Assembly: GCA_964544725.1 (NCBI GenBank)
Contig: CAZJDG010000018.1
Coordinates: 1-14,537, forward strand
Origin: Candidatus Woesearchaeota archaeon
Lineage (GTDB): Archaea > Nanobdellota > Nanobdellia > Pacearchaeales > GW2011-AR1
Length of the DNA: 14,537 nt
Direction: 5' to 3'
The notes under the pieces were generated by a model, which made no database searches, had not been told where the DNA came from, and saw only the letters and a program-made list of their open reading frames with translations. Both the position numbers and the translations under genes were made by a program. Of this stretch, positions 1 through 14,066 are shown piece after piece (positions within the stretch are counted from its first letter, which is position 1; every line of letters begins with the position of its first letter).

Positions 1-134
1 CTTTCAAGTCAGAGGATAAAAGGGAAACAGAATCTAAACTTCACTGTCCAAAATGCTTTAGTGCAAATGTAGGTATGGTTTCAGGTTGTAGCGAACCAAC
101 CTGTTTTGATTGTGGATATTCAAAGTGTAGTTAA
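1..134 (+). CDS. nrdJ: 3' end (last ~43 codons) of a class II adenosylcobalamin-dependent ribonucleotide reductase-like gene: Cys-rich zinc-finger/redox tail
   Basis: Frame 3 reads FKSEDKRETESKLHCPKCFSANVGMVSGCSEPTCFDCGYSKCS*, with the stop at 132-134. The pattern is CxxC-x10-C-x4-CxxC-x4-C at the extreme C-terminus, as I recall for NrdJ tails. The downstream CobO and thioredoxin genes fit. Only the tail is visible. Confidence 0.45.
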   Translation, partial: FKSEDKRETESKLHCPKCFSANVGMVSGCSEPTCFDCGYSKCS

Positions 135-146
135 GGAACCTAAATT

Positions 147-154
147 TTTATATA
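147..154 (+). promoter_or_regulatory. archaeal TATA box (TTTATATA) for the 177 ORF; spacing implies a leaderless mRNA
   Basis: TTTATATA is centred about 26 nt upstream of the ATG at 177. No Shine-Dalgarno-like purine tract lies between them. Confidence 0.45.
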
Positions 155-176
155 ATTTATTCTTTAAGAATAAAGC

Positions 177-869
177 ATGAAAAATATAACTCTCGATGAA
201 TGTATTAGTCTTCAGGAGTCTTTTTTCCATGATGGAGTTTTTTCTCCATTTGAATTCGTTGAAGATTACCATGTATTTTATCCTTTAGCAATAATCGGTG
301 AGGTTGGAAGTCTTGTGAATAATTTCTGCAAAAAAATTAGAAGTCCAAATGACTACTCTTCTAAAATAAGAAATGAATCTGCAGACGTTTTTGTTTACTT
401 CCTTTTATTTGGAAGGATGATAGAAAAAAATGAAGGATTAAGGGTTTTTGGAAAAATTAAAGAAAATTGGGATGAAGAACCCTCAATCATTAAAGATGAT
501 TTTAATTTTAAAGGAGAAATAGATATTTTACTTAAAAAAATATCTTTATTTTCATCTACCGAAAAAAATGAATGTTACACTGAAGAATTTTTTTATGAAA
601 TTTTTAAATTAATAAAAGATATAAATTTTTATGTAACTGGCTCAACTTGGCAAGAAATTATTAATGAATTTCATATCAATGTTATTAAAGAATTTACAAA
701 CATTAAGAAATACTCTCCAGACTTATGGTATAATGGTAGTTGCTATGTAAATTTCTCAAAAATAATTGATTTCATAAAGAGGAATGAGGTTGAAGTTCCA
801 AAAAAAGTTTTCTTATTCCTTGATAGAATAGAAAAACTTCAAAGTGTAGCTAAAAATATAAATCCTTAA
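177..869 (+). CDS. DCTPP1/MazG-like all-alpha NTP pyrophosphohydrolase domain protein with an uncharacterised C-terminal half
   Basis: 230-aa ORF. Residues 38-79 read AIIGEVGSLVNNFCKK...NESADVFVYFLLFG, which resembles the DCTPP1/MazG signatures (GEVGEL...F, then ExxDVLIYL). The second Glu of the first motif is Ser here. The remaining ~140 aa are unrecognisable by eye. Confidence 0.5.
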   Translation: MKNITLDECISLQESFFHDGVFSPFEFVEDYHVFYPLAIIGEVGSLVNNFCKKIRSPNDYSSKIRNESADVFVYFLLFGRMIEKNEGLRVFGKIKENWDEEPSIIKDDFNFKGEIDILLKKISLFSSTEKNECYTEEFFYEIFKLIKDINFYVTGSTWQEIINEFHINVIKEFTNIKKYSPDLWYNGSCYVNFSKIIDFIKRNEVEVPKKVFLFLDRIEKLQSVAKNINP

Positions 870-901
870 ATATTTGTAAATAGCTTTCCAGACGATAAAT
901 C

Positions 902-909
902 TTTATATA
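902..909 (+). promoter_or_regulatory. archaeal TATA box (TTTATATA) for the adenosyltransferase gene
   Basis: This is the same octamer as at 147-154. It is centred about 25-26 nt upstream of the ATG at 931. Confidence 0.45.
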
Positions 910-930
910 TCGGATTTTTGGGTATTATAA

Positions 931-1452
931 ATGGAAGACAAATTCGGTTTAGTCCATATTTATACTGGAGAAGGGAAAGGCAAAACTTCTGCAGGAATGG
1001 GTCTGATTTTAAGAGCTCTTGGAAGAGGCTCAAAAGTAAAAATCATCCAATTATTCAAAAGAGATACTGGAGAACAATTTTTCTTTGAAAATTCAGGAGT
1101 CGAATATTTACAATTCAAACCCTTACATCCTTACTTTAAAACTTATGATGAAAGTGAACTTGGAAATTTAAGAAAAGAATTTTTAGTATTTTGGGAAAAG
1201 GCATTAGAAAATTTTGAAATTTATGATGTGGTTTTAATTGATGAACTTGGTCCAGGAATCAATTGGAAAATAATTCCTGAAGAATTAGCATTAGAATTAA
1301 TTGAAAATAAACCAGAAAACACAGAACTAATTTTAACTGGAAGAGATTTCCCAAAATCATTAATAGATAAAGCAAACTATGTGTCTGAAATCAAAAAAAT
1401 AAAACATCCTTACGATGAAGGAATTCTGGCAAGGGAAGGAATAGAATATTAA
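931..1452 (+). CDS. cobO: cob(I)alamin / cob(I)yrinic acid a,c-diamide adenosyltransferase (CobA/CobO/BtuR family)
   Basis: 173 aa. The N-terminus GLVHIYTGEGKGKTSAGMGLILRALGRGSKVKIIQLFK matches the family P-loop block (vYTGnGKGKTTAAlGlalRA.G.G..V.vvQFlK). LIDELG and the C-terminal HPYDEG block also fit. Confidence 0.85.
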   Translation: MEDKFGLVHIYTGEGKGKTSAGMGLILRALGRGSKVKIIQLFKRDTGEQFFFENSGVEYLQFKPLHPYFKTYDESELGNLRKEFLVFWEKALENFEIYDVVLIDELGPGINWKIIPEELALELIENKPENTELILTGRDFPKSLIDKANYVSEIKKIKHPYDEGILAREGIEY

Positions 1453-1727
1453 TGATACTTTGGATTTTCATAATCCTTGATGCACTAGTTCTCACAACCA
1501 TAACTCTTACACAATTTACTTCAGCTTCAACTTTCCCGTTACTCCTTTCTTCAATAACTTATTTAGGCGCTAAAGGATTTTTATTTTTCGGAGAACCCAT
1601 GAGCACAATAGACCTTTTCATAGCAGTTTATCTTATCCTAATGATTTTTGGAGTTAAGATAATATTCGCTTATTACTTGATGCTTGGGTGGTTTTTGTAC
1701 AAATTACTATTTACTCTTCTTAGTTAG
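1452..1727 (+). CDS. small hydrophobic membrane protein (about 3 TM segments), translationally coupled to cobO
   Basis: 91-aa ORF made almost entirely of hydrophobic stretches. Its ATG overlaps the cobO stop codon (TAATG at 1450-1454). Confidence 0.55.
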   Translation: MILWIFIILDALVLTTITLTQFTSASTFPLLLSSITYLGAKGFLFFGEPMSTIDLFIAVYLILMIFGVKIIFAYYLMLGWFLYKLLFTLLS

Positions 1728-1747
1728 ATATTTTTCTACAACAATAG

Positions 1748-1755
1748 TTATAAAT
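1748..1755 (+). promoter_or_regulatory. TATA-like box (TTATAAAT) upstream of the DCD::Nudix gene
   Basis: Centred 22 nt upstream of the ATG at 1773 and 25 nt upstream of the ATG at 1776. The second ATG may be the true start. Confidence 0.35.
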
Positions 1756-1772
1756 GATTCCGACAAAGAAAG

Positions 1773-3623
1773 ATGATGGACAATCAAAGGGGTCACACCT
1801 TAGTTTCACAGCAATTAAGGTCACTTATTTTAAATGGAGCAATACGGGTTCCAGAATCAAATCTTCTTCAACTCAGTTCAGATATTGAAAGTGAAAAAAA
1901 GAAAAAGGGATGGTTCAAGAAAGATTCTCTTGAAAGAAGGGTGCAACCAGGCTCATTTGAACCCAGTCTAGATGAAGAATTGTTTATTATTGACACTGAA
2001 GGTTCAGGAATTTTCAGACCAAGAAAAAATGAAAGTGTTTACAAAACTCTTTTACAAATTCCTGCACGAAGAAGAGTTAAGGTAAATATAGACGGAGGAT
2101 ATGAAGTAAAGAGGGGACATTCTGCACTAATACATCTTAATGAAAAAATAAACTTTGGAGTTTCCTCCGAATTTGATTTTATAAAATCCTCTCCAAAAAG
2201 TAGCATAGGAAGATTATTTCCAACTACTCGTTTATTATGTGATTATAGTGATTCTTTTGATGAGGCAACTGGAAATCATATGGGAGATTTAGATATGTGG
2301 CTTTTGTTCCAACCTTTTCCTAAAGATTTGATTATACAGCCAGGATTAACCTTAAATCAATTATGGTTCATTAAAGGAGACGCAAAATTAACAAATGAAG
2401 AAATAAGAAATGAATTATATAATAATCCATTGTTGTACGATGGAGATAGAAATCCCATTCAAAATCTAAAAGTTACTGATGGTCTTCCCCTCACTATTGA
2501 TTTAGAAGGAAAAGCAACTGAGGGAGTTGTAGGATTGCGTATGAGAAGAAATCCCCAACCAATTGACCTATCTAAAAAAGAGGAATATCTCCCTGAAGAA
2601 CATTTTGAACCAATTCTAGCAAAAGAAAAAATTGTTCTCAAACCAGGAAATCATTATCTCTTTGCTTCCAGTGAAGTATTATCAATTCCCTCTCACCTAA
2701 GTGCAGAGTTAAGAAGGCATTCACACGAAGGGCTTGAGGGAAAGTCACATGATGCTGGATGGATAGACCAAGGTTTTGTAGGGGATTTAGTTTTTGAAAT
2801 AGGTCCTTATGAAGAAATTACTTTAGAAGGAGAGAGAACACCAATAAGTAGACTTGATTTATTTAGAACATCTGAAATTCCGGATAAAATTTATGGAGTT
2901 GAAATAGGTTCAAGTTACCATGGTCAAAAAGGGCCGAAGACATCGAAACATTTCAAACCATTTGATTTTGCAATGGCTGCCAAAAACTATGAAAAATTAT
3001 CAAAGATGGTTTTAGTGCAAGATAGAGAAGTTTTACTAAGACATAGAACTATTCCTGAAGGGTTTGAACCAATGAGTCCAGAAAACACCCCAAATTTTTT
3101 TAGAGACATTGAAAGTGGTTTTTTCCACTCCCGTTATGATTGTGAAGAAGATCCTTTATTATTACAATTCATACCTTATGTTTTACTTTTTAATCAAGAT
3201 GAAGAAGTTTTTTCATATATCCGATCAGACAACATACACCATTACGGGGACAAAAGACTTTTCGGAAAACATTCAATAGGTGTTGGAGGGCATGTAGTCA
3301 AAAATGATGGACAGGATTATATTAGGAATTGTTTAGAACGAGAATTAGCAGAGGAGGTGAAAATTTCTGGAAAACATTCTCCCCCTTTATTTGCTGGAAC
3401 TCTATATGCAACAAACAAGCCAGTGGACAAAGTTCATTTAGGATTGATATATGCTCTCAGAGCAGAGGGAACAATCGAGCCTAATGAGGATTCAATAGTT
3501 CATGCGGAAATGGCTCCAATTAGTCAAATGAGAGAAGATTATCATCAAGGCATTGAAACCGAAACTTGGACAAGAATATTAATTCCACACTTAAAAAATA
3601 TCTACAATTTATCAAAACCATAA
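1773..3623 (+). CDS. two-lobed dCTP deaminase-like (dUTPase-fold, long DCD type) domain fused to a C-terminal Nudix hydrolase-like domain
   Basis: 616 aa. The N-terminus LVSQQLRSLILNGAIRV...VQPGSFEPSLDEE is Dcd-like. KSSIGRL appears in lobe 1. Lobe 2 has LKPGNHYLFASSEVLSIP...SHDAGWIDQGFVGDLVFEI...SYHGQKGPKTSK. The C-terminus has QFIPYVLLF...SIGVGGHV...LERELAEEVKI, a Nudix REUxEE core. Confidence 0.75.
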   Translation: MMDNQRGHTLVSQQLRSLILNGAIRVPESNLLQLSSDIESEKKKKGWFKKDSLERRVQPGSFEPSLDEELFIIDTEGSGIFRPRKNESVYKTLLQIPARRRVKVNIDGGYEVKRGHSALIHLNEKINFGVSSEFDFIKSSPKSSIGRLFPTTRLLCDYSDSFDEATGNHMGDLDMWLLFQPFPKDLIIQPGLTLNQLWFIKGDAKLTNEEIRNELYNNPLLYDGDRNPIQNLKVTDGLPLTIDLEGKATEGVVGLRMRRNPQPIDLSKKEEYLPEEHFEPILAKEKIVLKPGNHYLFASSEVLSIPSHLSAELRRHSHEGLEGKSHDAGWIDQGFVGDLVFEIGPYEEITLEGERTPISRLDLFRTSEIPDKIYGVEIGSSYHGQKGPKTSKHFKPFDFAMAAKNYEKLSKMVLVQDREVLLRHRTIPEGFEPMSPENTPNFFRDIESGFFHSRYDCEEDPLLLQFIPYVLLFNQDEEVFSYIRSDNIHHYGDKRLFGKHSIGVGGHVVKNDGQDYIRNCLERELAEEVKISGKHSPPLFAGTLYATNKPVDKVHLGLIYALRAEGTIEPNEDSIVHAEMAPISQMREDYHQGIETETWTRILIPHLKNIYNLSKP

Positions 3624-3626
3624 AAG

Positions 3627-3634
3627 TTTATAAA
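3627..3634 (+). promoter_or_regulatory. TATA box (TTTATAAA) upstream of thioredoxin
   Basis: Centred about 31 nt upstream of the ATG at 3662, just after the stop codon of the upstream gene. Confidence 0.35.
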
Positions 3635-3661
3635 TTGTATTTTTTCTATACTCTTGTTAAA

Positions 3662-3988
3662 ATGACAAACAACGATCAAGTTCCAGAATTAAGCGAACAG
3701 GAATTTAATTCTTACATCAAAGAGGGAACTGTTCTGATTGATTTTTTTGCAGACTGGTGCATGCCCTGTGTTATGATGTCTCCAGTAATAGATGAATTAT
3801 CTGAAAAATTTAAAGGGAAAATAAAATTCGGGAAACTAAATATCGAAGACAATTCAAATATTGCACAAAAATTCGGAGTGGCTTCAATTCCAAATTTTAT
3901 ATTATTCAAAGATGGTGAACAAATTGAACAATTTATTGGTTCAATGCCTGGAGATGATTTTAAAGAAAAATTAGAAAACTTTGTTTAA
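3662..3988 (+). CDS. trxA: thioredoxin
   Basis: 108 aa counted from the internal Met (MTNNDQ...). The active site is WCMPC (3755-3769), a variant of WCGPC. A cis-Pro block SIPNFILFKDG and a typical Trx length are present. The ORF-track start at 3566 overlaps the upstream gene and the promoter, so I rejected it. Confidence 0.9.
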   Translation: MTNNDQVPELSEQEFNSYIKEGTVLIDFFADWCMPCVMMSPVIDELSEKFKGKIKFGKLNIEDNSNIAQKFGVASIPNFILFKDGEQIEQFIGSMPGDDFKEKLENFV

Positions 3989-3989
3989 A

Positions 3990-4187
3990 ATGAAAAAGAT
4001 ATGTGGGATTTCAATTGAAGATTTTGCTACGGTTAGATTAGTTGGAGAAACTAGAAATTTAACTCCTGAAGAATTGAGGACAACTCTTAACAGAGATTAT
4101 CATCCTCTTGTTACTAAAGATAATGAAGGTGTTTTAGTTTATATGTCTGATAAAGAATATGAAGAATTGACAAAGGGAAGAGCATAA
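3990..4187 (+). CDS. Phd/YefM-fold small protein (antitoxin-like N-domain only, no toxin-binding tail)
   Basis: 65 aa from the ATG at 3990, which is 1 nt after the trx stop. YHPLVTKDNEGVLVYMSDKEYEELTK aligns by eye with E. coli YefM [27 protein letters not shown]. The protein ends right after this block. Confidence 0.5.
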   Translation: MKKICGISIEDFATVRLVGETRNLTPEELRTTLNRDYHPLVTKDNEGVLVYMSDKEYEELTKGRA

Positions 4188-4206
4188 TTATTTCTGTCTC
4201 GGTAAC

Positions 4207-4214
4207 TTTAAAAA
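4207..4214 (+). promoter_or_regulatory. TATA box (TTTAAAAA) for tRNA-Lys
   Basis: Centred about 27 nt upstream of tRNA position 1 (4238). Confidence 0.45.
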
Positions 4215-4237
4215 TCTAAATTTATTCAATCAATTAC

Positions 4238-4311
4238 GGCTCCGTAGCTCAGCTTGGTAGAGCACTGGACTTTTAATCCAGGTGTCGAGGGTTCGAATCC
4301 CTTCGGGGCCA
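4238..4311 (+). tRNA. tRNA-Lys: tRNA-Lys (anticodon UUU), no intron, CCA not encoded
   Basis: Cloverleaf folded by hand. Acceptor stem GGCTCCG/CGGGGCC with one G-U pair. D arm GCTC/GAGC. Anticodon stem CTGGA/TCCAG with loop CTTTTAA. T arm GAGGG-TTCGAAT-CCCTT. Discriminator A. Total 74 nt. Confidence 0.93.
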
Positions 4312-4312
4312 C

Positions 4313-4318
4313 TTTTTT
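4313..4318 (+). terminator. oligo-T archaeal termination signal after the tRNA
   Basis: A T6 run begins 2 nt after the tRNA 3' end. Confidence 0.4.
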
Positions 4319-4321
4319 AAA

Positions 4322-4588
4322 ATGAGTTTATCAAAACTAATTGAAGAAACAACCCAAAGGGAAACTTATTGTAGAAATATGGCTAAAAAATTTAAAAGAT
4401 TAGCAATTCTTTCGGGAGCAGTTTCTCTAGGTGCATTATATTTTCTTGACAAAAGTCCAACTATGAGTACTTTTACATCCCTAACTGGACTAGGATTCAC
4501 AATATTTGATGTTACCAATTATTTTAGGTATAATCAATATGCAAATTATTTAAGGGAAAGACATCCAATATATTTTAATGAAGATTAA
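4322..4588 (+). CDS. small hypothetical membrane protein
   Basis: 88-aa ORF with hydrophobic segments (LAILSGAVSLGALYFL; FTSLTGLGFTIF). It starts only 10 nt after the tRNA and has no separate promoter. No family recognised. Confidence 0.4.
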   Translation: MSLSKLIEETTQRETYCRNMAKKFKRLAILSGAVSLGALYFLDKSPTMSTFTSLTGLGFTIFDVTNYFRYNQYANYLRERHPIYFNED

Positions 4589-4668
4589 TTTCTCTAAAAA
4601 TCACCTAAAATTGACCAAAAAACAGGTTTCTAAAGCAATTCAGAAATGGTACATCAAGCAGCCTAAAA

Positions 4669-4676
4669 TTTATAAA
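4669..4676 (+). promoter_or_regulatory. TATA box (TTTATAAA) positioned for a leaderless start at the ATG at 4698
   Basis: Centred about 25-26 nt upstream of the ATG at 4698, the same geometry as at the 177 and 931 genes. Confidence 0.45.
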
Positions 4677-4792
4677 TAAAATCTACTTTAAATAATAATG
4701 GATAAATATAAACAAAGATTGGGAAAATTCTTATTGGAACAGGAATTTTTAGCAATCTTATTTCTTTTTCTGGATGTGAAAGTTTTGAAGAG

Positions 4793-5035
4793 ATGGTAGA
4801 ATCGACTCATGATAAAATATATAATAAGGTGTATAATGGTGCCTTACTAAGGTGTGTAGATACAAATCATGATGGTATTATTACATATAAGGAAAAAGAT
4901 GATTTTACTGTAGATTGGATCAAGAATCAAGGTGTAACAATGATAATGGGACAAGGACGTCCACTAAATCCCAGTGGAGAGAAAGTTTCTACAGCAACTT
5001 TGATAGAATGGTTAAAAGAAACATGCCTTAAATAA
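4793..5035 (+). CDS. small EF-hand Ca2+-binding protein; probably the 3' portion of a frameshifted lipoprotein gene that starts at 4698
   Basis: The canonical 12-residue EF-hand loop DTNHDGIITYKE (DxNxDGxIxxxE) lies at 4859-4894. Upstream in the same frame is KIGKILIGTGIFSNLISFSGC, a signal peptide plus lipobox-like Cys, but with no start codon. The nearest promoter-served ATG (4698) is in another frame. Confidence 0.55.
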   Translation: MVESTHDKIYNKVYNGALLRCVDTNHDGIITYKEKDDFTVDWIKNQGVTMIMGQGRPLNPSGEKVSTATLIEWLKETCLK

Positions 5036-5040
5036 TTCTT

Positions 5041-5508
5041 TTACTTTTTCATAGATTTTTTCATTCTGTAAAGCACTAATAACCATGTCAATAAAAAACC
5101 AATTATTGTTATCACTATAATTATCAAAAAATAATTTATCTGTTTTTCAACATAAAAAATGGAGCTTCCAGACGCTTTATCGTCTACCGTGACTATAATT
5201 GAATATATTCCAGATTGTGCATTTTCAGGTATTAAAATAGACTTAACCCAAGAAAGTTGAATCCCAACACCCTTTGTTTCTGTTTTTCCAATAATGATCT
5301 CATTTCCTTTTTTAATTTCATATTCTAAAAAGATATCATGCGTCCCTGGATTTTCCGGGTCTATTATTTCAAAAGTAAAATAAACCTTTTCTCCCGCCTC
5401 AACTCTTTCATATTCCTTAAGAACATTAACAGAAACATCAATTGCCGAAATAAAAGTCAAATTCAAGATTACTATGGATACTATAATATAAATTAATTTT
5501 TTATTCAT
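5041..5508 (-). CDS. secreted, C-terminally membrane-anchored surface protein (single beta-sandwich-like ectodomain)
   Basis: 155 aa. N-terminal signal or TM segment MNKKLIYIIVSIVILNLTFISA. A beta-rich middle of about 105 aa. C-terminal TM segment FLIIIVITIIGFLLTWLLVL followed by the basic tail YRMKKSMKK. Confidence 0.6.
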   Translation of the reverse strand: MNKKLIYIIVSIVILNLTFISAIDVSVNVLKEYERVEAGEKVYFTFEIIDPENPGTHDIFLEYEIKKGNEIIIGKTETKGVGIQLSWVKSILIPENAQSGIYSIIVTVDDKASGSSIFYVEKQINYFLIIIVITIIGFLLTWLLVLYRMKKSMKK

Positions 5509-5660
5509 TTTCTACTTCCTTTAACTTTTTAGAAAAGAGTCTTTTATCCACTAAATCCAAGTACCTTTTCCTGCCCCAACAAATTTTGCTTTAATCAATC
5601 CCTCTTCTCTAAGATTATTCTATAAGTTTTTCTGGATAACTTATCAAGTTATTTGTCCAT
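5501..5660 (-). pseudogene. decayed small winged-helix (wHTH) DNA-binding gene remnant
   Basis: The minus strand gives three consecutive fragments in different frames. They are MDK*LDKLSRKTYRIILEKRD*, NNLREEGLIKAKFVGAGKGTWI* and LDLVDKRLFSKKLKEVENE*. Joined, they look like a recognition helix, a wing and a C-terminal helix. The last fragment's stop overlaps the start region of the 5508 gene. The region is short and AT-rich, so over-reading is possible. Confidence 0.3.
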
Positions 5661-5744
5661 TATTTATGATTCATTTAATATTGCGTGATAAAGAATATAA
5701 AAAAGTATCGTTTAATATTAAATGACTGCAAGGAAATAGTTAAA

Positions 5745-5897
5745 ATGGCAAAAGTTCGTTACGTTAATATTTCAGTTCCAGATAAATTAGCAAAAGCTAT
5801 TGAAGATTATATTAAAGAACATCCTGAATTAGATTTAAGAAGTAGGGCCCAAGTTGTTAATTTTGCATTAAGAAAGTTGTTTGTTGATGGGAAATAG
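5745..5897 (+). CDS. ribbon-helix-helix (CopG/Arc/MetJ-like) DNA-binding protein
   Basis: 50 aa from the ATG at 5745: MAKVRYVNISVPDKLAKAIEDYIKEHPELDLRSRAQVVNFALRKLFVDGK. This is a beta strand (VNISVP) followed by two helices, the typical RHH layout. I consider the GTG start at 5685 in the ORF track unlikely. Confidence 0.6.
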   Translation: MAKVRYVNISVPDKLAKAIEDYIKEHPELDLRSRAQVVNFALRKLFVDGK

Positions 5898-5898
5898 A

Positions 5899-5905
5899 TT
5901 TTTTT
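5899..5905 (+). terminator. oligo-T (T7) termination signal after the RHH gene
   Basis: A T7 run begins 2 nt after the TAG stop. Confidence 0.35.
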
Positions 5906-5937
5906 AACAAATTATATAAATCTAAGAAATCAAAAGG

Positions 5938-5956
5938 TTTTTAAACCAATTTTTAG
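5938..5956 (+). repeat. copy 1 of the 19-bp direct repeat TTTTTAAACCAATTTTTAG (contains a TATA-like TTTTTAAA)
   Basis: An exact 19/19 match to 5998-6016, exactly 60 nt upstream of it. It lies in the intergenic region upstream of rpoH. Confidence 0.9.
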
Positions 5957-5997
5957 TTTCTTTTATTATTGGCCAGTTGTTAAAATAAATCAATAAA

Positions 5998-6016
5998 TTT
6001 TTAAACCAATTTTTAG
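5998..6016 (+). repeat. copy 2 of the 19-bp direct repeat TTTTTAAACCAATTTTTAG, ending 1 nt before the rpoH ATG
   Basis: Exact repeat of 5938-5956. The rpoH ATG at 6018 follows. Confidence 0.9.
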
Positions 6017-6017
6017 C

Positions 6018-6227
6018 ATGCACATTCTCCAACCAAAACACAGCAAACTAAATGAAAAAGAGTCTGAAAAGTTATTACAAAATCTAAATGTTTCTAAATC
6101 GCAACTACCCAAAATATATCTAAGTGATTCAGTATTACCTGAAGGGGCTGATGTCGGAGATGTTATAAAAATAGAAAGAAAAGGCCCTGATGGAAAATTA
6201 AATTTATATTACAGAGTTGTTGTTTAA
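6018..6227 (+). CDS. rpoH: DNA-directed RNA polymerase subunit H (Rpo5 / Rpb5 C-terminal domain homologue)
   Basis: 69 aa. HILQPKHSKLNEKESEKLLQNLNVSKSQLPKIYLSDSV...GDVIKIER...YYRVVV matches the archaeal RpoH pattern (H.LVPKHeiLseeE...l....qLPkI...DP......GdvvkI.R). It sits immediately upstream of rpoB. Confidence 0.9.
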   Translation: MHILQPKHSKLNEKESEKLLQNLNVSKSQLPKIYLSDSVLPEGADVGDVIKIERKGPDGKLNLYYRVVV

Positions 6228-6228
6228 T

Positions 6229-9200
6229 ATGAAAAACAACAGCCATATCGTTGTAAAAAAATATCTATCAGATCACTCCCTAGTACAATCAAATATTACT
6301 TCTTATAATAATTTTATCGAAAAAAGACTCCAAGAGATTGTCGATGAAATTTCAGAAACAATTGATAACGAAGACTTTGAAATAATTCTTGGAAAAGTTA
6401 AAGTGGGGAAACCAAGAATTATAGAATCCGATGGAAGTTCGGAAGACGTACTCCCTTATGAAGTAAGACTTAGAAATCTGACTTATTCTGCACCAATCAC
6501 TCTTGAAATGACTATCAAAAAAGATGGTCAAATTGACTCGGAAATAGTTGAAATTGGAAGAATTCCAGTAATGGTTGGAAGCAATGTGTGTAATACTCAT
6601 GGAATGTCTGAAGAGGAATTAATAAACAATTATAATGATCCTAAAGATTCAGGAGGTTACTTCATAATTAATGGAAATGAAAGAGTCATGGTTATGTCTG
6701 AAGACTTAGCAGAAAACCAACCATTCATTGAATACAACTCAAAAAAAGAACTTCATTTAAGATTATTCTCTTCAAGAGGAACCTACAGAATTCCAACAAC
6801 TATATCAGAAAGTAAAGAAGGACTTCTTGAGTTAAGTTTCAGTAGATTTAGAGATCTTCCAGCGGTTGTTATTTTGAAGGCATTAGGAATGGTAAAAGAA
6901 TCCGATATTGCCAAATTTATTGGAAAAGAAACAGATAGTGTTATTGTTAATCTTTACGAATTCGTTAATATAAACACATCAGAGGATGCATTGATGTACA
7001 TCGCTGAAAAAGCATCTTTACAAGGAACAAAAAAAGAAATTCTTGATAGAGCAAAACAAAGAATTGATTCTTATTTGTATCCACATATAGGTCAAAAGAA
7101 AGAAGATAGAATCAAAAAAGCAATTACCTTATGTAAATTAATCAAACAATATTTAGTTGCTAAAGAAAATCCTCATTTGAAAACAGATAAAGACCATTAT
7201 GCGAACAAAAGAGTGAGATTGTCCGGGGATTTATTAGCAAGTTTGTTCAGAGTTAATCTTGGAGTTTTAGTAAGAGATATTCACTATTCTTTACAAAAGG
7301 CTTCAAAAAGAAAAAAAATATTCTCAATTAGAACAATTGCAAAATCAACTTTATTCTCACATAGAATTGAATCTGCAATAGCGACTGGAAGTTGGACTGG
7401 AGAAAGATCAGGTGTTACCCAAAATATGGATAAGACAAATTATCTAGCAATTATTTCTCAATTGCAGAGAGTTTCATCTATGTTGCCCTCAGAACAAGAA
7501 AACTTCTTAGCAAGAACATTACATCCAACTCATTATGGTAAATTCTGTCCAATCGAAACTCCTGAAGGAACTGAAATTGGACTAAGAAAAAACCTTGCCA
7601 TTTTATGTCAAATTTCTACAAGGACCGATTTAGATGAAGAAAAGTTTTTGAAAGATTTAGAATCTGAAGGCTTAGATAAAGAAGGAGTTGCAGGAACTGA
7701 TGTTTTCCTTAACGGAAGATTCATTGGAAATGTAGCATCTCCTGATGATTTTGTAAAGAAGATAAGGGAAAAAAGAAGAGATGGCGAACTACCCTTACAA
7801 CTAAACATAAGATCTGATTCTAATTTTGAAATTATTACAATTTCGACAGAACCAGGAAGAGCACTAAGACCATTAATAATTGTTGATAATGGAATCCCAA
7901 GATTAACAAAAGAACATTTACTTAGATTGGAACAAGATGAAATTAACTGGGATTATTTAATCAAAGAAAAAGTGATTGAATATCTAGATACCTCTGAAGA
8001 AGAAAATGCACTAGTCTCATTATACGAAGAAGAATTAACACATGAACACACTCACTTAGAAATTGATTCTATGGATTTGCTTGGAGTTGTTACAAGTTTA
8101 GTTCCTTACGGAAACCACGACCAAAGTTCAAGATTAAACAGAGGAAGTAAGACTCAGAAGCAAGCTTTAGGTTTGTATGCTGCAAATTACTTATGTAGAT
8201 TGGACACAGATGTATCTATTTTACAATATCCCCAAAAACCAATCGTAAGAAGTTTTGTCTATGACACATTAGACACTTATCCTGCTGGACAAAATTTAGT
8301 GGTTGCAATTATGACTCATGAAGGATACAACATGGAGGATGCTTTAGTTTTCAACAAGGGCAGTATTGACAGAGGGGTTGGAAGAAGTTTTTATTTTAGA
8401 CCCCATTCTGCAGTCGAAATGAATTATGCAGGAAGTTTAAAAGATGAAATTATAATTCCAGACAAAGACACATCAGGTTACAAAACTGAAGCAAGCTACA
8501 AGAACTTAGAAGATGATGGTGTTGTTTATCCTGAAGCAGAAATCAATGAAGGAGAAGTTTTAATCGGAAAAATCTCACCCCCAAAATTCTTGTCAGAAGC
8601 TAGAGAAATTTCAGTTAGAACAAAAAAAGAATCAAGTGTAACAATGAAGCAAGAAGAAAAAGGAACTGTTGAATCTGTTTTCATAACTCAAGATTCAGAA
8701 GGAAACAAAATCGTCCAAGTTAAAACAAGAGATTTAAGAATCCCTGAAATTGGAGATAAATTCGCTACTTCGCATGGCCAGAAAGGAGTTATTGGGGCAA
8801 TAATTCCTGAAAATGATGTTTCTTTTACTTCAAGAGGAATAAGACCTGACGTAATTTTCAATCCACATGGTTTATCAAGTAGAATGACTATGGGATACCT
8901 TTTAGAATTGCTTGCTGGAAAAGTAGGATGCCTCAGAGGTAAAATTGTTGATGGAACTCCTTTCTCTGGAGAAACTAAGTCTGAATTAGAAGGTCAATTA
9001 GTAAATTTAGGATTTAGATTTGATGGGAAAGAAGCCATGTACAATGGAGTTACTGGAAAAAGAATGGATGTTAAAATATTCGTTGGAAACTTATACTATT
9101 TGAAACTGAAATATATGGTGGCAAACAAGATACATGGAAGAGCCTCTGGAAAAATCGCCCTATTAACAAGACAGCCAATCGAAGGAAGATCAAGAGGAGG

Positions 9201-9483
9201 AGCATTAAGATTAGGAGAAATGGAGCAGCAAGCATTAGTTGCACATGGAGCATCTCTATTACTAAAAGAAAGATATGATTCTGATAAGGTAATATTACAT
9301 ATTTGTACAAAATGTGGAACAATTGCAGTTGAAGACAATATTAGGGAAAAAATCTACTGTCCTTCTTGTTCCAGTGAAGAGGCTGAACCTGTAGAAGTTT
9401 CTTATGCGTTCAAATTACTATTGGAAGAACTTCAAGGATTACATATTCAAACTAAACTTGGTCTAAAGAACAAATACGAGTAA
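6229..9483 (+). CDS. rpoB: DNA-directed RNA polymerase subunit B (unsplit)
   Basis: About 1084 aa from the ATG at 6229 (TAA-T-ATG junction with rpoH). Hallmark blocks are GYFIINGNERV, GDKFATSHGQKG, RMTMGYLLE, GEMEQQALVAHGA and the C-terminal Zn ribbon CTKCG...CPSC. Confidence 0.97.
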   Translation: MKNNSHIVVKKYLSDHSLVQSNITSYNNFIEKRLQEIVDEISETIDNEDFEIILGKVKVGKPRIIESDGSSEDVLPYEVRLRNLTYSAPITLEMTIKKDGQIDSEIVEIGRIPVMVGSNVCNTHGMSEEELINNYNDPKDSGGYFIINGNERVMVMSEDLAENQPFIEYNSKKELHLRLFSSRGTYRIPTTISESKEGLLELSFSRFRDLPAVVILKALGMVKESDIAKFIGKETDSVIVNLYEFVNINTSEDALMYIAEKASLQGTKKEILDRAKQRIDSYLYPHIGQKKEDRIKKAITLCKLIKQYLVAKENPHLKTDKDHYANKRVRLSGDLLASLFRVNLGVLVRDIHYSLQKASKRKKIFSIRTIAKSTLFSHRIESAIATGSWTGERSGVTQNMDKTNYLAIISQLQRVSSMLPSEQENFLARTLHPTHYGKFCPIETPEGTEIGLRKNLAILCQISTRTDLDEEKFLKDLESEGLDKEGVAGTDVFLNGRFIGNVASPDDFVKKIREKRRDGELPLQLNIRSDSNFEIITISTEPGRALRPLIIVDNGIPRLTKEHLLRLEQDEINWDYLIKEKVIEYLDTSEEENALVSLYEEELTHEHTHLEIDSMDLLGVVTSLVPYGNHDQSSRLNRGSKTQKQALGLYAANYLCRLDTDVSILQYPQKPIVRSFVYDTLDTYPAGQNLVVAIMTHEGYNMEDALVFNKGSIDRGVGRSFYFRPHSAVEMNYAGSLKDEIIIPDKDTSGYKTEASYKNLEDDGVVYPEAEINEGEVLIGKISPPKFLSEAREISVRTKKESSVTMKQEEKGTVESVFITQDSEGNKIVQVKTRDLRIPEIGDKFATSHGQKGVIGAIIPENDVSFTSRGIRPDVIFNPHGLSSRMTMGYLLELLAGKVGCLRGKIVDGTPFSGETKSELEGQLVNLGFRFDGKEAMYNGVTGKRMDVKIFVGNLYYLKLKYMVANKIHGRASGKIALLTRQPIEGRSRGGALRLGEMEQQALVAHGASLLLKERYDSDKVILHICTKCGTIAVEDNIREKIYCPSCSSEEAEPVEVSYAFKLLLEELQGLHIQTKLGLKNKYE

Positions 9484-9501
9484 TCAAAGGTCATAATTAA
9501 A

Positions 9502-12500
9502 ATGTCAAAAGCAATTAAGAAAAAAATATCTGAAATAAAGTTTGTTCTGATTAGTCCAGAGCAAATTAAAAAGATTTCAGTTGCAAAAATTGTAACACCT
9601 GAACTTTATGATATTGATCAGTACCCAGTTGATGGCGGATTAATGGACTTGAGACTTGGTGCAATAGACCCAGGAGTAAGATGTAGAACTTGTGGTGGAA
9701 GATTAAAAGAATGTCTTGGACACTCTGGAAGGATTGAATTAGCAAGACCAGTAATGCATTTGAAATATGTTCCCCTAATTGAAACTGGTTTAAGATGTTT
9801 CTGTCACGAATGTGGAAAATTAATGCTTAGTGATAAAGACTTAGTAAAATATCCAGCAAGCGAGAGAGCTAAAAAAGCTAAAGATTGTAAGAGATGCCCA
9901 CACTGTAATACTGCTCATGAAAAAGTAAAAACTGAAAAGCCAACAAGTTTCTATATTGGAAAAAAGAGACTTTTCCCAACAAAAATAAGAGAAATTTTAG
10001 TTAATATTCCAGATGAAGAATTAAGAAAGATTGGAGTAGACCCTGAAGGAGCGAGACCTGAATGGGCTGTTTTAACTTTACTTTTAGTTCCTTCTGTAAC
10101 AATTAGACCAAGTATTGTTCTTGAATCTGGAGAAAAAAGTGAAGATGATTTAACACATAAACTTTCAGACATAATTAGAGCAAATCAAAGACTTTGGGAA
10201 AACCTAAATGCAGGGGCTCCAGAAGTTATTATTGAAGATTTATGGGATTTATTACAATTCCACATAACAACTTTCTTCGACAATGCAGTTTCAAAAATCC
10301 CCCCAGCAAGACACAGAAGTGGACAACCATTAAAAACAATCACTGAAAGAATTAAAGGAAAAGAAGGAAGAATCAGAAAGAACCTTGCAGGAAAAAGAGT
10401 CAATTATTCTGCAAGAACTGTTGTTTCTCCAGACCCATCTATTGATCTTAATGAAGTTGGAATTCCTTTAGAAATTGCAAAAATTGTAACTGTAGCAGAA
10501 ACAGTTAATGACATTAATCTTGAAAAGCTAAAAAAATTAATAGAAAATGGAGAAAATTATCCTGGAGCAAATTACATAATAAGACCTGATGGAAAAAAGA
10601 AAAAAATAACAGAAGAATTGAAAGAAGAAATTATGAGTGAAATTATCCCTGGATATCAAGTTGAGAGACATTTACAAGAAGGAGACATAGTTCTATTCAA
10701 TAGACATCCTAGTTTACACAAGGGAAGTTTAATGGCACACTATGTAAAAATTTTACCAGGAAGAACATTCAGATTGCACCCAGGAACAACTTTCCCATAT
10801 AATGCTGATTTTGATGGAGATGAAATGAATATTCACTCTCCACAAACTGAAGAAGCGAGAGCTGAAGCAATAAATTTACTGGATGTTAAACAAAATTTAA
10901 TGTCTCCAAAAAATAATACTAATTTTTTAGGATTCAGTGCTGACGCAATAACTGGAAATTATTTATTAGGATTAAAAGAATTTGATTCTGGATCTGCAAA
11001 CCAACTACTTTATAATTCCGGAATAGACAGTTCATTCTCAAAAAAGAATATTTCAGGGGAAAAAATTTTCTCCCAATTTATCCCTAAGATTAATTTCTCA
11101 AATGATTCCATACAAATAAAGGATGGAAATATCATAAAAGGTAAAATTGACAAAACTCTTTTTGGAAGTGAAGATGGAGAATTAGTCAAACATCTAGATA
11201 AAGAAGTTGGAAGAGCTGAAACAACCAAAATAATCAAAAATTTATTTGACTTGGGAATAAATTATTTAACAGATAGAGGAATAACTATCTCTCTTGAAGA
11301 TTTGAATCTACCTGTAAAGGCACTTACAGAAAGTAAGGAAATTATAAATAGGGCTGAAAAGAAAGTTGAAAACATAATTGAAGAATACAAACAAGAGCAA
11401 GTAGAAATAATGCCAGGAAGAACTAAAGAAGAAACTAGGGAAATCAAAATTCTTCAAACTCTAAACGAAGTAAGAACAAAAATTGGGGAAATGGTGAAGA
11501 AAGAATTCCCTGAAGATAATCCGGTAAACCATATGATTACTTCTGGGGGTGGTGGAAATATTCTGAATATAACTCAAATAGCATGTTGTGTGGGTCAACA
11601 GGCTCTAGGGGGTAAAAGAGTTGACATAGGATACAATCAAAGAACATTACCTTTCTTTAAGAAAGAAGAAATCTCCCCAGCATCAAGAGGATTCATTAAT
11701 AGTTCATTCATGAAAGGGCTGAGACCGGACGAATTCTTCTTTGGAGCAGTTACTGGAAGAGATTCTCTAATGGATACTGCATTAAGAACTCCTAAATCTG
11801 GTTACTTATATAGAAGACTTGCAAATGCATTCCAAGACTTAAAAGTAGAGTATGATGGAACAATAAGAGACAGTAATAATAATGTTATAGAATTCCAGTA
11901 TGGACATGATGGTTTGGATGTATCAAAACTTCACCTAGGGGAAAAAATCTCTTCCGGAGAAGCTATCGGAATCGTTACCGCACAATCATTCGGAGAATCC
12001 TCAACACAGATGGTTCTAAACACTTTCCATATGGCAGGTGTTCAGGAAATGCAGGTTACTGCAGGACTACCAAGAATTATAGAAATTTTTGACGCAAGAA
12101 AAAAACCTTCATCTCCAAAAATGGATATTTACCTATCAAAAGATAATAACAATGAAAAAGATGCAAAATCATTTGCTGAAAGAATCAAAGAAGTTAAAGT
12201 AAGTGAAATAGCTTCTGAAATAAAATTGAACTTTAGTGATAAAAGTATTGAAATTGTTTCAGACAAGCAAGGACTTAGGCAAGCACATCTCTCATTAAAA
12301 AAAGTTGTTGACAAATTGAATGATCTTGGGTACAACTCTAAAGAGAAAGGAGATTCAATAATCATGAATGTTTCTTTGCTAGACTTCAAAGAAATTTATA
12401 AGCTTAAAGAAAAAATAAAGAAAACAATAATTTCTGGAATTAAGGATATCAAAGAAGTTGTAGTTGTAAGGAAAGATAGAGATTACATGATTGCAACTGC

Positions 12501-12945
12501 AGGGACCAACTTGAAGAAAATTGTTGAATTAAAAGAAGTTGACAAAGATAAAACAATCTCAAATGATTTCCACGAAGTTGTAGAAGTTTTCGGAGTAGAA
12601 GTTGCAAGACAATTAATAATTGAAGAAATAAAAAAAGTTTTGAATACACAGGGAATTGATATTGATATAAGGCATTTAGAATTAGCTGCTGATGCAATGA
12701 GTAATACTGGTTCAATAAAAGGGATAACTAGAATGGGGATCATTGCCCAAAAATCTTCAATTCTTGCAAGAGCAACTTTCGAAACACCAGTAAAACAATT
12801 TGTAAACGCATCCGTAAAGGGGAATAAAGATAAGTTGACAAGTGTTATAGAAAACATTATACTCAATCAGCCAGTTCCCGTCGGTACGGGATTACCTGGT
12901 TTACTCGTAAAAGTAATTGGTTCTTTAGCAAAAAAGAAAGAATAA
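9502..12945 (+). CDS. rpoA: DNA-directed RNA polymerase largest subunit, A' and A'' portions encoded as one continuous ORF
   Basis: 1147 aa. N-terminal Zn sites CRTCGG...CLGHSG and CHECG...CPHC. Catalytic NADFDGDEM at 10801-10827. Bridge helix GRDSLMDTALRTPKSGYLYRRL. Trigger loop GEAIGIVTAQSFGESSTQMVLNTFHMAG at 11956-12039. A''-type C-terminus NQPVPVGTGL. No stop codon lies between the A' and A'' regions. Confidence 0.95.
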   Translation: MSKAIKKKISEIKFVLISPEQIKKISVAKIVTPELYDIDQYPVDGGLMDLRLGAIDPGVRCRTCGGRLKECLGHSGRIELARPVMHLKYVPLIETGLRCFCHECGKLMLSDKDLVKYPASERAKKAKDCKRCPHCNTAHEKVKTEKPTSFYIGKKRLFPTKIREILVNIPDEELRKIGVDPEGARPEWAVLTLLLVPSVTIRPSIVLESGEKSEDDLTHKLSDIIRANQRLWENLNAGAPEVIIEDLWDLLQFHITTFFDNAVSKIPPARHRSGQPLKTITERIKGKEGRIRKNLAGKRVNYSARTVVSPDPSIDLNEVGIPLEIAKIVTVAETVNDINLEKLKKLIENGENYPGANYIIRPDGKKKKITEELKEEIMSEIIPGYQVERHLQEGDIVLFNRHPSLHKGSLMAHYVKILPGRTFRLHPGTTFPYNADFDGDEMNIHSPQTEEARAEAINLLDVKQNLMSPKNNTNFLGFSADAITGNYLLGLKEFDSGSANQLLYNSGIDSSFSKKNISGEKIFSQFIPKINFSNDSIQIKDGNIIKGKIDKTLFGSEDGELVKHLDKEVGRAETTKIIKNLFDLGINYLTDRGITISLEDLNLPVKALTESKEIINRAEKKVENIIEEYKQEQVEIMPGRTKEETREIKILQTLNEVRTKIGEMVKKEFPEDNPVNHMITSGGGGNILNITQIACCVGQQALGGKRVDIGYNQRTLPFFKKEEISPASRGFINSSFMKGLRPDEFFFGAVTGRDSLMDTALRTPKSGYLYRRLANAFQDLKVEYDGTIRDSNNNVIEFQYGHDGLDVSKLHLGEKISSGEAIGIVTAQSFGESSTQMVLNTFHMAGVQEMQVTAGLPRIIEIFDARKKPSSPKMDIYLSKDNNNEKDAKSFAERIKEVKVSEIASEIKLNFSDKSIEIVSDKQGLRQAHLSLKKVVDKLNDLGYNSKEKGDSIIMNVSLLDFKEIYKLKEKIKKTIISGIKDIKEVVVVRKDRDYMIATAGTNLKKIVELKEVDKDKTISNDFHEVVEVFGVEVARQLIIEEIKKVLNTQGIDIDIRHLELAADAMSNTGSIKGITRMGIIAQKSSILARATFETPVKQFVNASVKGNKDKLTSVIENIILNQPVPVGTGLPGLLVKVIGSLAKKKE

Positions 12946-12970
12946 ATCTTTAGGAAAAGGAAAGATTAAG

Positions 12971-12978
12971 TTTTTAAA
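12971..12978 (+). promoter_or_regulatory. TATA-like box (TTTTTAAA) upstream of nusA
   Basis: This is the same TTTTTAAAC motif as in the 19-bp repeats. It lies about 50 nt upstream of the ATG at 13026, implying a UTR of about 25 nt if functional. Confidence 0.3.
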
Positions 12979-13025
12979 CAAAGAATTATTGAAAGTTTTA
13001 TGGATGAATTTTCTGATATAACAAA

Positions 13026-13442
13026 ATGGCTAATACTATAAATATGCAAGATATGCGGCACTTGAATTTATTCGGAAGAATAACACATATCAGCACAAGG
13101 TTCTGTTTCCCATATAATGAGCATATTATTTTCAGTGTTCCAATGAATCTTGTTTCAAAAGCAGTTGGAGAAAACGGAAGAAACATAAAAAAATTAAATG
13201 AAATTCTTGGAAAAAGAGTAAAAGTAGTTCCTTCTCCTAACGGAATTCAGGATGCAGAAAAATTCATCGAAAGGGTAATTAGCCCTACCCAATTTAGAGA
13301 AATAGAGCTAATAGATGATACAATAATTATAACGGCTGGTTCCCAAAACAAAGCAGCATTATTGGGAAGAAACAAAAGGAGATTATTAGAATTACAAAAA
13401 ATAGTTAAGAATTTTTTTGGAAAAGAGCTAAGAATTATTTAA
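13026..13442 (+). CDS. nusA: archaeal NusA-like transcription termination/antitermination factor (two KH domains)
   Basis: 138 aa. Two KH GxxG-type blocks are present, AVGENGRNIKKLNEILGKRVKVV and LLGRNKRRLLELQKIV. Its position after rpoA matches the conserved archaeal cluster. Confidence 0.85.
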   Translation: MANTINMQDMRHLNLFGRITHISTRFCFPYNEHIIFSVPMNLVSKAVGENGRNIKKLNEILGKRVKVVPSPNGIQDAEKFIERVISPTQFREIELIDDTIIITAGSQNKAALLGRNKRRLLELQKIVKNFFGKELRII

Positions 13443-14032
13443 TCTTTTTTTAGCCGATAAATCCAGCCAATAACAAACCCTAAAGTATTAAATCCTGGAT
13501 TCCCAGAATTATTCGCATGCATAGTTCTATAATATAACGAATTCCATATCTTTTTCCCCATAGAAATATGGTCCAAATCCACAGCAAAAGTTAATGCTGA
13601 GTTCTCAGAAAGTTTATATTCAAGTCCTACACCAGCATTAAGGTTAAAATTTAATTTGTATTTATGTTCTTCAAAATTCCTAGCCATGTAAATAGCGCCC
13701 ATTCCTAAATAAAAGTAAGGACTTATTTCCTTTTTCTCAAAAATTTTCTTAAGCTTAAAATCAATACCAGCATCATAGTCTCCTTGAAACTCTCCTAAAA
13801 AAGGAGCTACTTTAAATTTATTAAAACCCCACAAATCATAATCAAATTCAAAACCTAAACTAATTCTAAGAGGATCATATTTTTCATCAGTCCCATTGAG
13901 AACCTGAGTATTTTGATGATATCCCAAAGAAGGATGAATTCGATAATATTCATTTTTCCCTAGTGCAGAGGAACTTAAGACAGTTGTTACAAAAAAAGTA
14001 GAGAGAATTAAATCCTTTAATATTTTCTTCAT
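13439..14032 (-). CDS. PagL / acyloxyacyl hydrolase-like 8-stranded beta-barrel protein with Sec signal peptide
   Basis: 197 aa. Signal peptide MKKILKDLILSTFFVTTVLSSSALG. Alternating beta-barrel pattern. LNFNLNAGVGLEYKLSENSALTFAVDLDHISMG...NPGFNTLGFVIGWIY aligns by eye with the P. aeruginosa PagL C-terminus LNFEDRIGAGLKFANGQSVGVRAIHYSNAG..PNDGIESYSLFYKI (recalled from memory). The His-x-Ser motif is conserved at 13562-13570. Confidence 0.6.
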   Translation of the reverse strand: MKKILKDLILSTFFVTTVLSSSALGKNEYYRIHPSLGYHQNTQVLNGTDEKYDPLRISLGFEFDYDLWGFNKFKVAPFLGEFQGDYDAGIDFKLKKIFEKKEISPYFYLGMGAIYMARNFEEHKYKLNFNLNAGVGLEYKLSENSALTFAVDLDHISMGKKIWNSLYYRTMHANNSGNPGFNTLGFVIGWIYRLKKD

Positions 14033-14052
14033 AAAAAGCTCAGAAAGTTGTC

Positions 14053-14060
14053 TTTTAAAA
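14053..14060 (-). promoter_or_regulatory. TATA-like box (TTTTAAAA, palindromic) upstream of the PagL-like gene
   Basis: Centred about 24-25 nt upstream of the minus-strand ATG at 14032, inside the 34-nt gap after the GTPase stop. Confidence 0.35.
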
Positions 14061-14066
14061 GAATTA

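Follow-up and report, generated by a model that had tools for sequence, protein, structure and literature searches.

A dCTP deaminase-family protein fused to a YmaB/TM1382-type Nudix domain in DPANN archaea: a candidate dCTP to dUMP enzyme on one chain

The window analyzed here is a stretch of 14,537 nucleotides (nt) from a Candidatus Woesearchaeota archaeon (assembly GCA_964544725.1, contig CAZJDG010000018.1, positions 1–14,537 of the forward strand), which is AT-rich, with a G+C content of ~31%, and archaeal in its gene content. Between the genes of a ribonucleotide reductase and a thioredoxin it holds a gene on the + strand (1773..3623) that encodes 616 amino acids and a stop codon in one continuous frame. 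The protein consists of two lobes of the dCTP deaminase (DCD) fold, lobe 1 (residues 1–228; 1773..2456, +) and lobe 2 (residues 229–398; 2457..2966, +), followed by a Nudix domain of the YmaB/TM1382 type (residues 399–616; 2967..3620, +), and is referred to below as the fusion. DPANN archaea have tiny genomes and rely on scavenged nucleotides, and the safe synthesis of dTTP in these organisms is a gap in metabolic maps. The protein is built from two known families, and their fusion makes the function of YmaB-type proteins directly testable.

In the deaminase half, Pfam recognizes DCD_N (PF06559) at residues 50–202 (3e-11; 43.7 bits against a cut-off of 21.4) and DCD_C (PF22569) at residues 231–394 (2e-26; 92.9 bits against a cut-off of 22), so that the long DCD family and accession named in an earlier note on this DNA were the right ones. 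The NCBIfam model for the long DCD (NF005734) scored 134.2 bits, below its equivalog cut-off of 283, and the model for the short Dcd (TIGR02274) scored 43.8 bits, below its cut-off of 92.8. The best sequence match in the PDB is the long DCD 2R9Q (E = 7.5e-23, residues 137–395), and the short Dcd and Dcd-Dut sequences of the PDB align with lobe 2 only, weakly in the case of 1OGH (E = 0.017). Judged by these sequence comparisons, the deaminase half is a divergent subfamily of the long-form DCD.

An AlphaFold model of the 616-residue protein, built with 87 orthologues in the alignment, has a mean predicted local distance difference test (pLDDT) score of 95 and a predicted template modeling (pTM) score of 0.89, and the domains are predicted to pack against each other in a fixed manner. 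A Foldseek search with the full model retrieved 2R9Q first (template modeling (TM) score of 0.87–0.90, E = 8e-25), followed by 3E57, short Dcd and Dcd-Dut structures, and various Nudix proteins. When lobe 1 was modeled alone (residues 1–228, pLDDT of 93.8), it matched short Dcd and Dcd-Dut structures with E values from 2e-7 to 1e-5 and TM scores of 0.6–0.74. The modeling thus confirmed two Dcd-fold lobes, in agreement with the claim of the earlier note that the fold occurs twice. By sequence, lobe 1 significantly resembles neither lobe 2 (hhalign, E = 0.32) nor Escherichia coli Dcd (E = 0.17–0.84 over these comparisons), and the duplication is therefore evident from structure alone.

The motifs of a Dcd active site are divided between the two lobes; conservation is counted here over 148 non-identical fusion proteins. 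Lobe 1 carries the phosphate-binding motif K142-S143-S144-I-G146-R147 (nt 2196–2213) and lacks the catalytic Glu; Q180 (LLFQPF) is kept in 141 of the orthologues. Lobe 2 aligns with E. coli Dcd (hhalign, probability of 90%; the Dcd sequence was checked against 1XS1), pairing H326 with H121, D332 with D128, E342 (codon at nt 2796–2798) with E138, and Y382-Q385-G387 with Y179-Q182-G184. The PDB contains E138A/D and H121A mutant entries of Dcd, which marks these residues as studied ones. Lobe 2 reads RHSHEGL at the position of the Dcd sequence RSSLARL, and the Arg of the SSxxR motif is missing. The complementary half-sites described in the earlier note are thus present, with KSSIGR in lobe 1 and with the Glu and the C-terminal lid, without an SSxxR block, in lobe 2. 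Residues K142, S143, G146, R147, R153, D157, Q196, D332, Y374, Y382, Q385, and G387 are invariant in all 148 proteins, and E342 and E347 are each kept in 147.

Active sites of the Dcd family sit in inter-subunit clefts, three identical ones per enzyme of ~190-residue chains (PMC4827122), whereas here two non-identical lobes carry half of the motifs each; by analogy, the two lobes probably mimic neighboring subunits and together build a single composite active site. The homotrimeric Dcd (E. coli, 1XS1) and Dcd-Dut (Methanocaldococcus jannaschii, 1OGH; Mycobacterium tuberculosis, 2QXX) have the fold seen in both lobes, lobe 2 retains their catalytic Glu, Asp, and C-terminal Tyr/Gln lid, and dUMP is the expected product of the pathway in common. 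Monomeric herpesvirus dUTPases, such as that of Epstein-Barr virus, are likewise duplicated dUTPase-fold chains with divided motifs and one intrachain site; their reaction and lineage differ from those of the window DCD, and the likeness is one of analogy. The closest structure, 2R9Q (Agrobacterium tumefaciens, from structural genomics), is the same kind of two-lobe Dcd-fold chain (TM score of 0.90), with PKSSxGR in lobe 1 and AGFxDxGF...E together with a GSxYxxQ lid in lobe 2. Compared with canonical long DCDs, the window protein is 22–30% identical and possesses an extra YmaB-type domain of 218 residues.

On the sequence evidence, this C-terminal domain belongs to the TM1382/YmaB family (COG4112, phrog_8902). 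The Pfam NUDIX model (PF00293, cut-off of 21.1 bits) gave a borderline match of 21.3 bits at residues 470–589, and no NCBIfam model matches the domain or its stand-alone relatives. TM1382 (3E57) was matched over residues 409–611 by sequence (E = 2.8e-14) and by structure with a TM score of 0.85 in Foldseek, which also retrieved the Nudix structures 2FKB, 5ZRK, 2O5F, and 3HHJ. The profile of the window domain aligned over its full length with that of YmaB (hhalign, 99.8%, E = 1e-27, 194 columns), the domain is 28% identical to the YmaB reference P0289 (blastp, E = 4e-17), and it is matched by phrog_8902 (4e-24), which PHROGs lists without a function. The earlier note had placed a linker of about 60 residues ahead of the Nudix domain. 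That reading does not hold: residues ~399–455 align with residues 14–70 of TM1382 and 2–60 of YmaB and are modeled with pLDDT >90, so that they form the structured N-terminal part of the domain.

The sequence RELAEEVKI (residues 523–531, nt 3339–3365) contains the metal-binding helix R523-E524-L-A-E527-E528 (nt 3339–3356), in which the REUXEE core is intact. The canonical Nudix box GX5EX7REUXEEXGU is not found as such; the window domain reads G506-x5-D512-x10-R523-E-L-A-E-E-V-K530-I, with Asp for Glu, 10 spacer residues rather than 7, and Lys for Gly, and half of the fusion orthologues have an RE-x3-EE spacing. The earlier note was right to see here a Nudix-like domain whose box departs from the canonical one. 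An alignment of 17 sequences from YmaB, phages, bacteria, and DPANN archaea has 24 invariant residues, all of which are present in the window domain (in YmaB numbering: R50, E54, Q61, I63, P64, R79, G84, R87, L88, S93, G97, G98, H99, R118, E119, E122, E123, G138, V147, V150, H151, E170, E194, and W196); among them are the R-E-x-x-E-E, GGH, VH, and E-x-W motifs. Among the fusion proteins, each of the Nudix glutamates is kept in 138–144 of 148 (93–97%).

The fusion is a genuine and conserved protein. Approximately 150 non-identical full-length orthologues with the same architecture were found in many samples, all from DPANN archaea, and a near-identical protein (P0001) comes from an independent assembly. 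They form >100 full-length clusters at 43–82% identity, the named ones being Nanoarchaeota, Woesearchaeota, or Pacearchaeota. Of the representatives at the 50%-identity level, ~60 have the complete fusion, down to 29% identity. A scan of species-representative genomes located the fusion at 57 loci and a DCD alone at 22, the latter including bacteria of the Candidate Phyla Radiation and one alphaproteobacterium. The earlier claim that two domains belong to one polypeptide is therefore secure, owing to the uninterrupted frame and the many orthologues. The note did not recognize the fusion as a characterized protein, and the literature searched held no characterizing study of the fusion or of a long DCD; automatic names at JGI for relatives ('dCTP deaminase/predicted NUDIX family phosphoesterase') already give both domains.

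A few relatives depart from this architecture. In P0022 (765 residues), NDK is joined to the C terminus of a DCD-YmaB protein, and one relative (L016) is split into proteins of 322 and 293 residues. In P0128 (361 residues), DCD lobe 1 is directly joined to a YmaB-type domain and there is no lobe 2, which may reflect gene decay or faulty assembly. An unfused long DCD (P0117, at L010/L069), 42% identical, lies directly 3′ of the gene for CTP synthase (PyrG); its contig also has a sigma-70 gene and a bacterial-type aspartyl-tRNA synthetase, and its archaeal label may be wrong.

In the window, a gene for a class II (B12-dependent) ribonucleotide reductase runs off the window start and is represented by its 3′ end (3..131, +); the translation closes with a Cys-rich C-terminal tail (...CPKCF...CFDCGYSKCS) and a stop codon, and is 71% identical to the C terminus of the NrdJ-like protein of a related locus, L003 (tblastn, E = 1e-11). 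Between this gene and CobO lies an open reading frame of 230 residues (177..869, +), for which Pfam and PHROG profile searches gave zero matches and which has a 30%-identical homologue near NrdJ in L043. A guess by eye that it and a 115-residue frame of L003 encode a MazG-like NTP pyrophosphatase found no support. The next gene encodes an ATP:corrinoid adenosyltransferase of the CobO/BtuR type (931..1452, +; PF02572, E = 6e-48), which would supply adenosylcobalamin for the class II reductase and is found between NrdJ and the fusion also in L003, L011, L012, and L013. It is followed by a gene for a predicted membrane protein of 91 residues (1452..1727, +), conserved beside CobO, NrdJ, and the fusion, with homologues at L003, L011, L012, L013, L021, L041, and L043. 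CobO and this membrane protein co-occur with a class II reductase in the window, L003, and L011–L013, a grouping that looks like a cofactor-supply pairing within the reductase cluster.

Downstream of the fusion, a thioredoxin gene (3662..3988, +; PF00085, E = 1e-26) encodes the likely reductant for the reductase; the listed frame starts at a TTG at 3566, yet homology begins at the ATG at 3662 (tblastn). After a few small open reading frames come the genes for RNA polymerase subunit H/Rpo5 (6018–6227), subunit B (6217–9483), and subunit A (9502–12945, +), followed by that for a NusA-type KH protein (13026–13442). Subunit A is an unsplit protein of 1147 residues with Rpb1 domains 1–5, and it is likewise not divided into A′ and A″ in L001–L005 (1100–1161 residues).

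The neighborhoods of related loci, surveyed over flanks of ≤10 kb, show that the reductase class is swapped between genomes while the fusion persists. NrdR and class I NrdAB lie upstream of the fusion in L001/L002, NrdR, a class II reductase (NrdJ-like, with a TSCPD domain), and CobO in L003/L004, and class III NrdDG in L005, in each case with thioredoxin and Rpo5 downstream. Of the fusion loci, 28 are flanked by ≥5 kb on either side; among these, a ribonucleotide reductase or NrdR is present in 13, thioredoxin in 8, and at least one gene of deoxynucleoside triphosphate (dNTP) metabolism (ribonucleotide reductase, Tmk, ThyX, NDK, Dut, or PyrG) in 18. Neighbors confirmed by Pfam include thymidylate kinase (Tmk) at 8 loci, where the stop and start codons frequently overlap, tandem ThyX at 6, and Dut at 3. 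Canonical long DCDs likewise adjoin tmk (L083–L086). NDK lies 8–16 nt downstream of the fusion in L054 and L058. Two early assignments were withdrawn: the 76-residue frames of L033 and L051 that had initially clustered with Dut are not Dut, and the supposed reductase cluster member of L045 is an intein-bearing SufB-like protein.

At five loci (L014, 9708–12011; L039, 7003–8710; L040, 4198–5229; L045, 9637–10203; and L067, 9875–10924), the direct neighbor of the fusion is a P-loop nucleotide kinase, either on its own or joined to a zinc dCMP-deaminase domain, and in L023 (5998–7644) the same kinase forms one protein with a second long DCD (548 residues). Overall, a candidate for every step from dCMP to dTTP (kinase, NDK, DCD, Nudix, ThyX, and Tmk) adjoins or is fused with the gene at some locus, and in the surveyed neighborhoods the step from dUTP to dUMP has no candidates other than the YmaB-type domain and the Dut genes of three loci. 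In L038 (2020–3588), the order is NrdD-NrdG-Dut-[canonical long DCD of 366 residues]-[fusion]-Rpo5, so that the fusion coexists there with a canonical long DCD, and L023 is similar. Extra stand-alone YmaB-like genes, divergently oriented and 30–33% identical to the fused domain, adjoin the fusion in L034 (7285–7950, −) and L016 (7249–7887, −).

YmaB of Bacillus subtilis and TM1382 of Thermotoga maritima share full-length homology, the 24 invariant residues, and an association with reductase genes with the fused domain; they are stand-alone proteins of ~190–220 residues, while here the domain is fused to the C terminus of a deaminase. A Bacillus phage relative led to 592 Bacillaceae proteins, including P0289, which lies in the order ymaF-miaA-hfq-..-nrdI-nrdE-nrdF-[P0289] and has zero Pfam matches; as this order fits the operon named in PMC5960316, P0289 is the ymaB orthologue. 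For recombinant YmaB, preliminary work reportedly showed dNTP pyrophosphohydrolase activity, and dAMP for NrdE was suggested as a product (PMC5960316), and the function of 3E57 is listed as undetermined (PMC5389931). The family also occurs in viral thymidylate cassettes, in the order nrdE-nrdF-grx-[YmaB-like]-thyA-DHFR in a Peribacillus prophage and nrdA..nrdB..thyA-DHFR-[YmaB-like]-tmk in Pseudomonas phage nickie, whose YmaB-like protein is ATW58021.1. A viral scan with a narrow YmaB-type alignment gave 74 loci; within 8 kb of each, a reductase was present in 31, thymidylate synthase in 13, and DHFR in 10, and Dut was found at none of the 74 with a small hidden Markov model that recovers the three DPANN Dut genes. 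Copies in Staphylococcus and Clostridium phages adjoin a DNA polymerase or exonuclease gene and no reductase.

Taken together, we consider the fusion, with a probability of roughly one half, to be a housekeeping enzyme of pyrimidine deoxynucleotide metabolism that converts dCTP via dUTP to dUMP, where the substrates, the order of the steps, and the channeling are what we infer. Lobe 1 would supply the triphosphate-binding K-S-S-x-G-R loop, and lobe 2 the base-recognition hairpin (H326 and D332), the catalytic E342, and the C-terminal lid (Y382 and Q385), so that the DCD module would deaminate dCTP to dUTP. The Nudix domain, with its intact RE-x2-EE helix, would then hydrolyze the dUTP made next to it to dUMP and pyrophosphate; the dUMP would feed ThyX and then Tmk, and dUTP would be kept out of DNA. 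In contrast to Dcd-Dut, where both steps take place in one site, a separate domain is proposed for the second step. The relay suggested by the earlier note stands as the best fit to the gene context of reductase, thioredoxin, Tmk, ThyX, NDK, and nucleotide kinases, and less firmly in the choice of dUTP as the Nudix substrate, which is inferred, and with regard to L023 and L038, which already have a Dut. More tentatively, and at somewhat less than even odds, we propose that YmaB/TM1382 proteins at large are dUTP (pyrimidine dNTP) pyrophosphatases of reductase-linked thymidylate supply, which replace or back up the trimeric Dut, and that the long DCD is a single-chain pseudo-dimer with one composite site that hands dUTP straight to the Nudix domain.

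Several observations weigh against this relay. In L023 and L038, the fusion has both a canonical Dut (Pfam, E = 2e-31) and another long DCD directly beside it, so that a route from dCTP via dUTP to dUMP exists there without it; the fusion is thus not simply a substitute for an absent dut and must contribute regulation, channeling, or another substrate. Ten of the 148 fusion proteins (~7%; P0024, P0055, P0072, P0078, P0086, P0100, P0105, L029, L056, and L072) have lost E524 or E528, with sequences such as RKITDE, RKVLTGE, and RDKVLGD, and keep every DCD residue and the other invariants of the YmaB family, implying that Nudix catalysis is dispensable in some lineages. No published activity of a long-form DCD was found in the literature searched, and the stand-alone relatives P0142, P0136, P0149, and P0132 from metagenomic bacteria have no reductase or thymidylate genes nearby. 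Moreover, the Dcd-Dut enzymes of M. jannaschii and M. tuberculosis are bifunctional, dUMP-forming deaminases; by analogy, the deaminase of the fusion could itself be bifunctional, which would leave the Nudix domain another job.

The main rival reading, possible though on balance unlikely, is that the Nudix half is no dUTPase and instead is a broader or different (deoxy)nucleoside triphosphate pyrophosphohydrolase, which tunes dNTP pools or reductase allostery (e.g., dATP to dAMP) or cleans out non-canonical pyrimidine dNTPs, next to a deaminase that works as proposed or forms dUMP itself. The activity reported for YmaB is a general one on dNTPs, and dAMP was the product suggested (PMC5960316); reductase genes rather than DCD are the strongest conserved association of the family, and among the structural neighbors of the domain are Nudix enzymes with dCTP or CTP as substrate (5ZRK, MutT2-dCTP; 2O5F, DR0079). 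The Dut and second DCD of L023 and L038 and the extra YmaB-like paralogues of L034 and L016 would also fit a separate substrate. However, a covalent fusion with a dUTP producer in ~150 orthologues is most simply read as consecutive steps, and phage cassettes put the family between thyA-DHFR and tmk with no Dut nearby. The dAMP idea, in turn, is tied to the class Ib NrdE of Bacillus, whereas the fusion follows reductases of class I, II, and III alike.

A chiefly non-catalytic Nudix-like domain, serving in nucleotide binding or as a scaffold, as a sensor of an effector such as dTTP, or as an oligomerization partner of the deaminase, appears improbable. In its favor are the ten proteins without E524 or E528, while R454, Y469, G505, G542, H555, E597, and W599 are present in 148 of 148 sequences and H507 in 147; the deviating Nudix box (Asp for Glu, the 10-residue spacer, and Lys for Gly) and a pTM of 0.89, which suggests fixed packing on the deaminase, point the same way. 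The retention of each glutamate in 93–97% of orthologues, the R-E-x-x-E-E motif in each of the 17 sequences aligned from across the family, YmaB and phage proteins among them, and the catalytic activity reported for YmaB (PMC5960316) argue for catalysis instead.

The earlier note had also raised an antiviral role, in which the fusion would be a virus-triggered effector that destroys dCTP upon infection, and this we regard as very improbable. The kinases at the five related loci, with or without the zinc dCMP-deaminase domain, match the anti-phage dCTP deaminase of PADLOC ('dCTPase', PDLC02373; best E = 2e-61, only over profile positions 155–395 of 630), and both types of enzyme are able to lower dCTP; these kinase neighbors may serve either housekeeping or defense. 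PDLC02373 shares with the fusion the nominal substrate dCTP, but it combines a kinase with a zinc cytidine-deaminase domain, a fold and architecture unrelated to the fusion, in which Pfam finds neither a kinase nor a dCMP_cyt_deam domain. Furthermore, the fusion itself has no PADLOC match (E up to 0.1), the window has no such kinase and no nearby sensor, toxin-antitoxin, or mobile-element genes, and in divergent genomes alike the gene keeps its housekeeping slot, with reductase/thioredoxin on one side and the RNA polymerase H-B-A operon on the other. An assembly or frameshift artifact merging two genes can be set aside: it has no positive support beyond the few split or truncated relatives (L016 and P0128), and it is contradicted by the continuous frame, the independent assembly of P0001, the ~150 non-identical full-length orthologues, and the lack of any linker that could conceal the junction of two genes.

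To our knowledge, a structure from structural genomics is all that is known of the long DCD, and the presence of YmaB/TM1382 in the B. subtilis nrd operon has lacked an explanation since the 1990s. These two poorly characterized families are linked by the fusion, which gives both a readily testable hypothesis: one chain takes dCTP via dUTP to dUMP. If the hypothesis is true, it would name a function for the widespread phage and bacterial family phrog_8902, add a way of removing dUTP other than Dut, and provide a second case, after the herpesvirus dUTPases, of a dUTPase-fold trimer site rebuilt in a duplicated chain. If it is false, the protein would still be correctly annotated as an enzyme of the dCTP deaminase family with an accessory Nudix domain.

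Two minor features of the window were also observed. On the − strand, an open reading frame of 197 residues (13439–14032) with a signal-peptide-like N terminus was weakly matched by the Pfam families of PagL lipid A deacylase (1e-7) and of outer-membrane beta-barrels; it is odd for an archaeal contig, its G+C content equals that of the rest of the window, and it has no homologues among 83 related DPANN loci. In addition, TATA-like AT-rich boxes were seen by eye ~20–30 nt 5′ of the ATG codons of the fusion (TTATAAAT, ~1747–1755) and of thioredoxin (TTTATAAA, ~3628–3637); they may be due to chance at 31% G+C, and they would fit separate promoters with leaderless transcripts.

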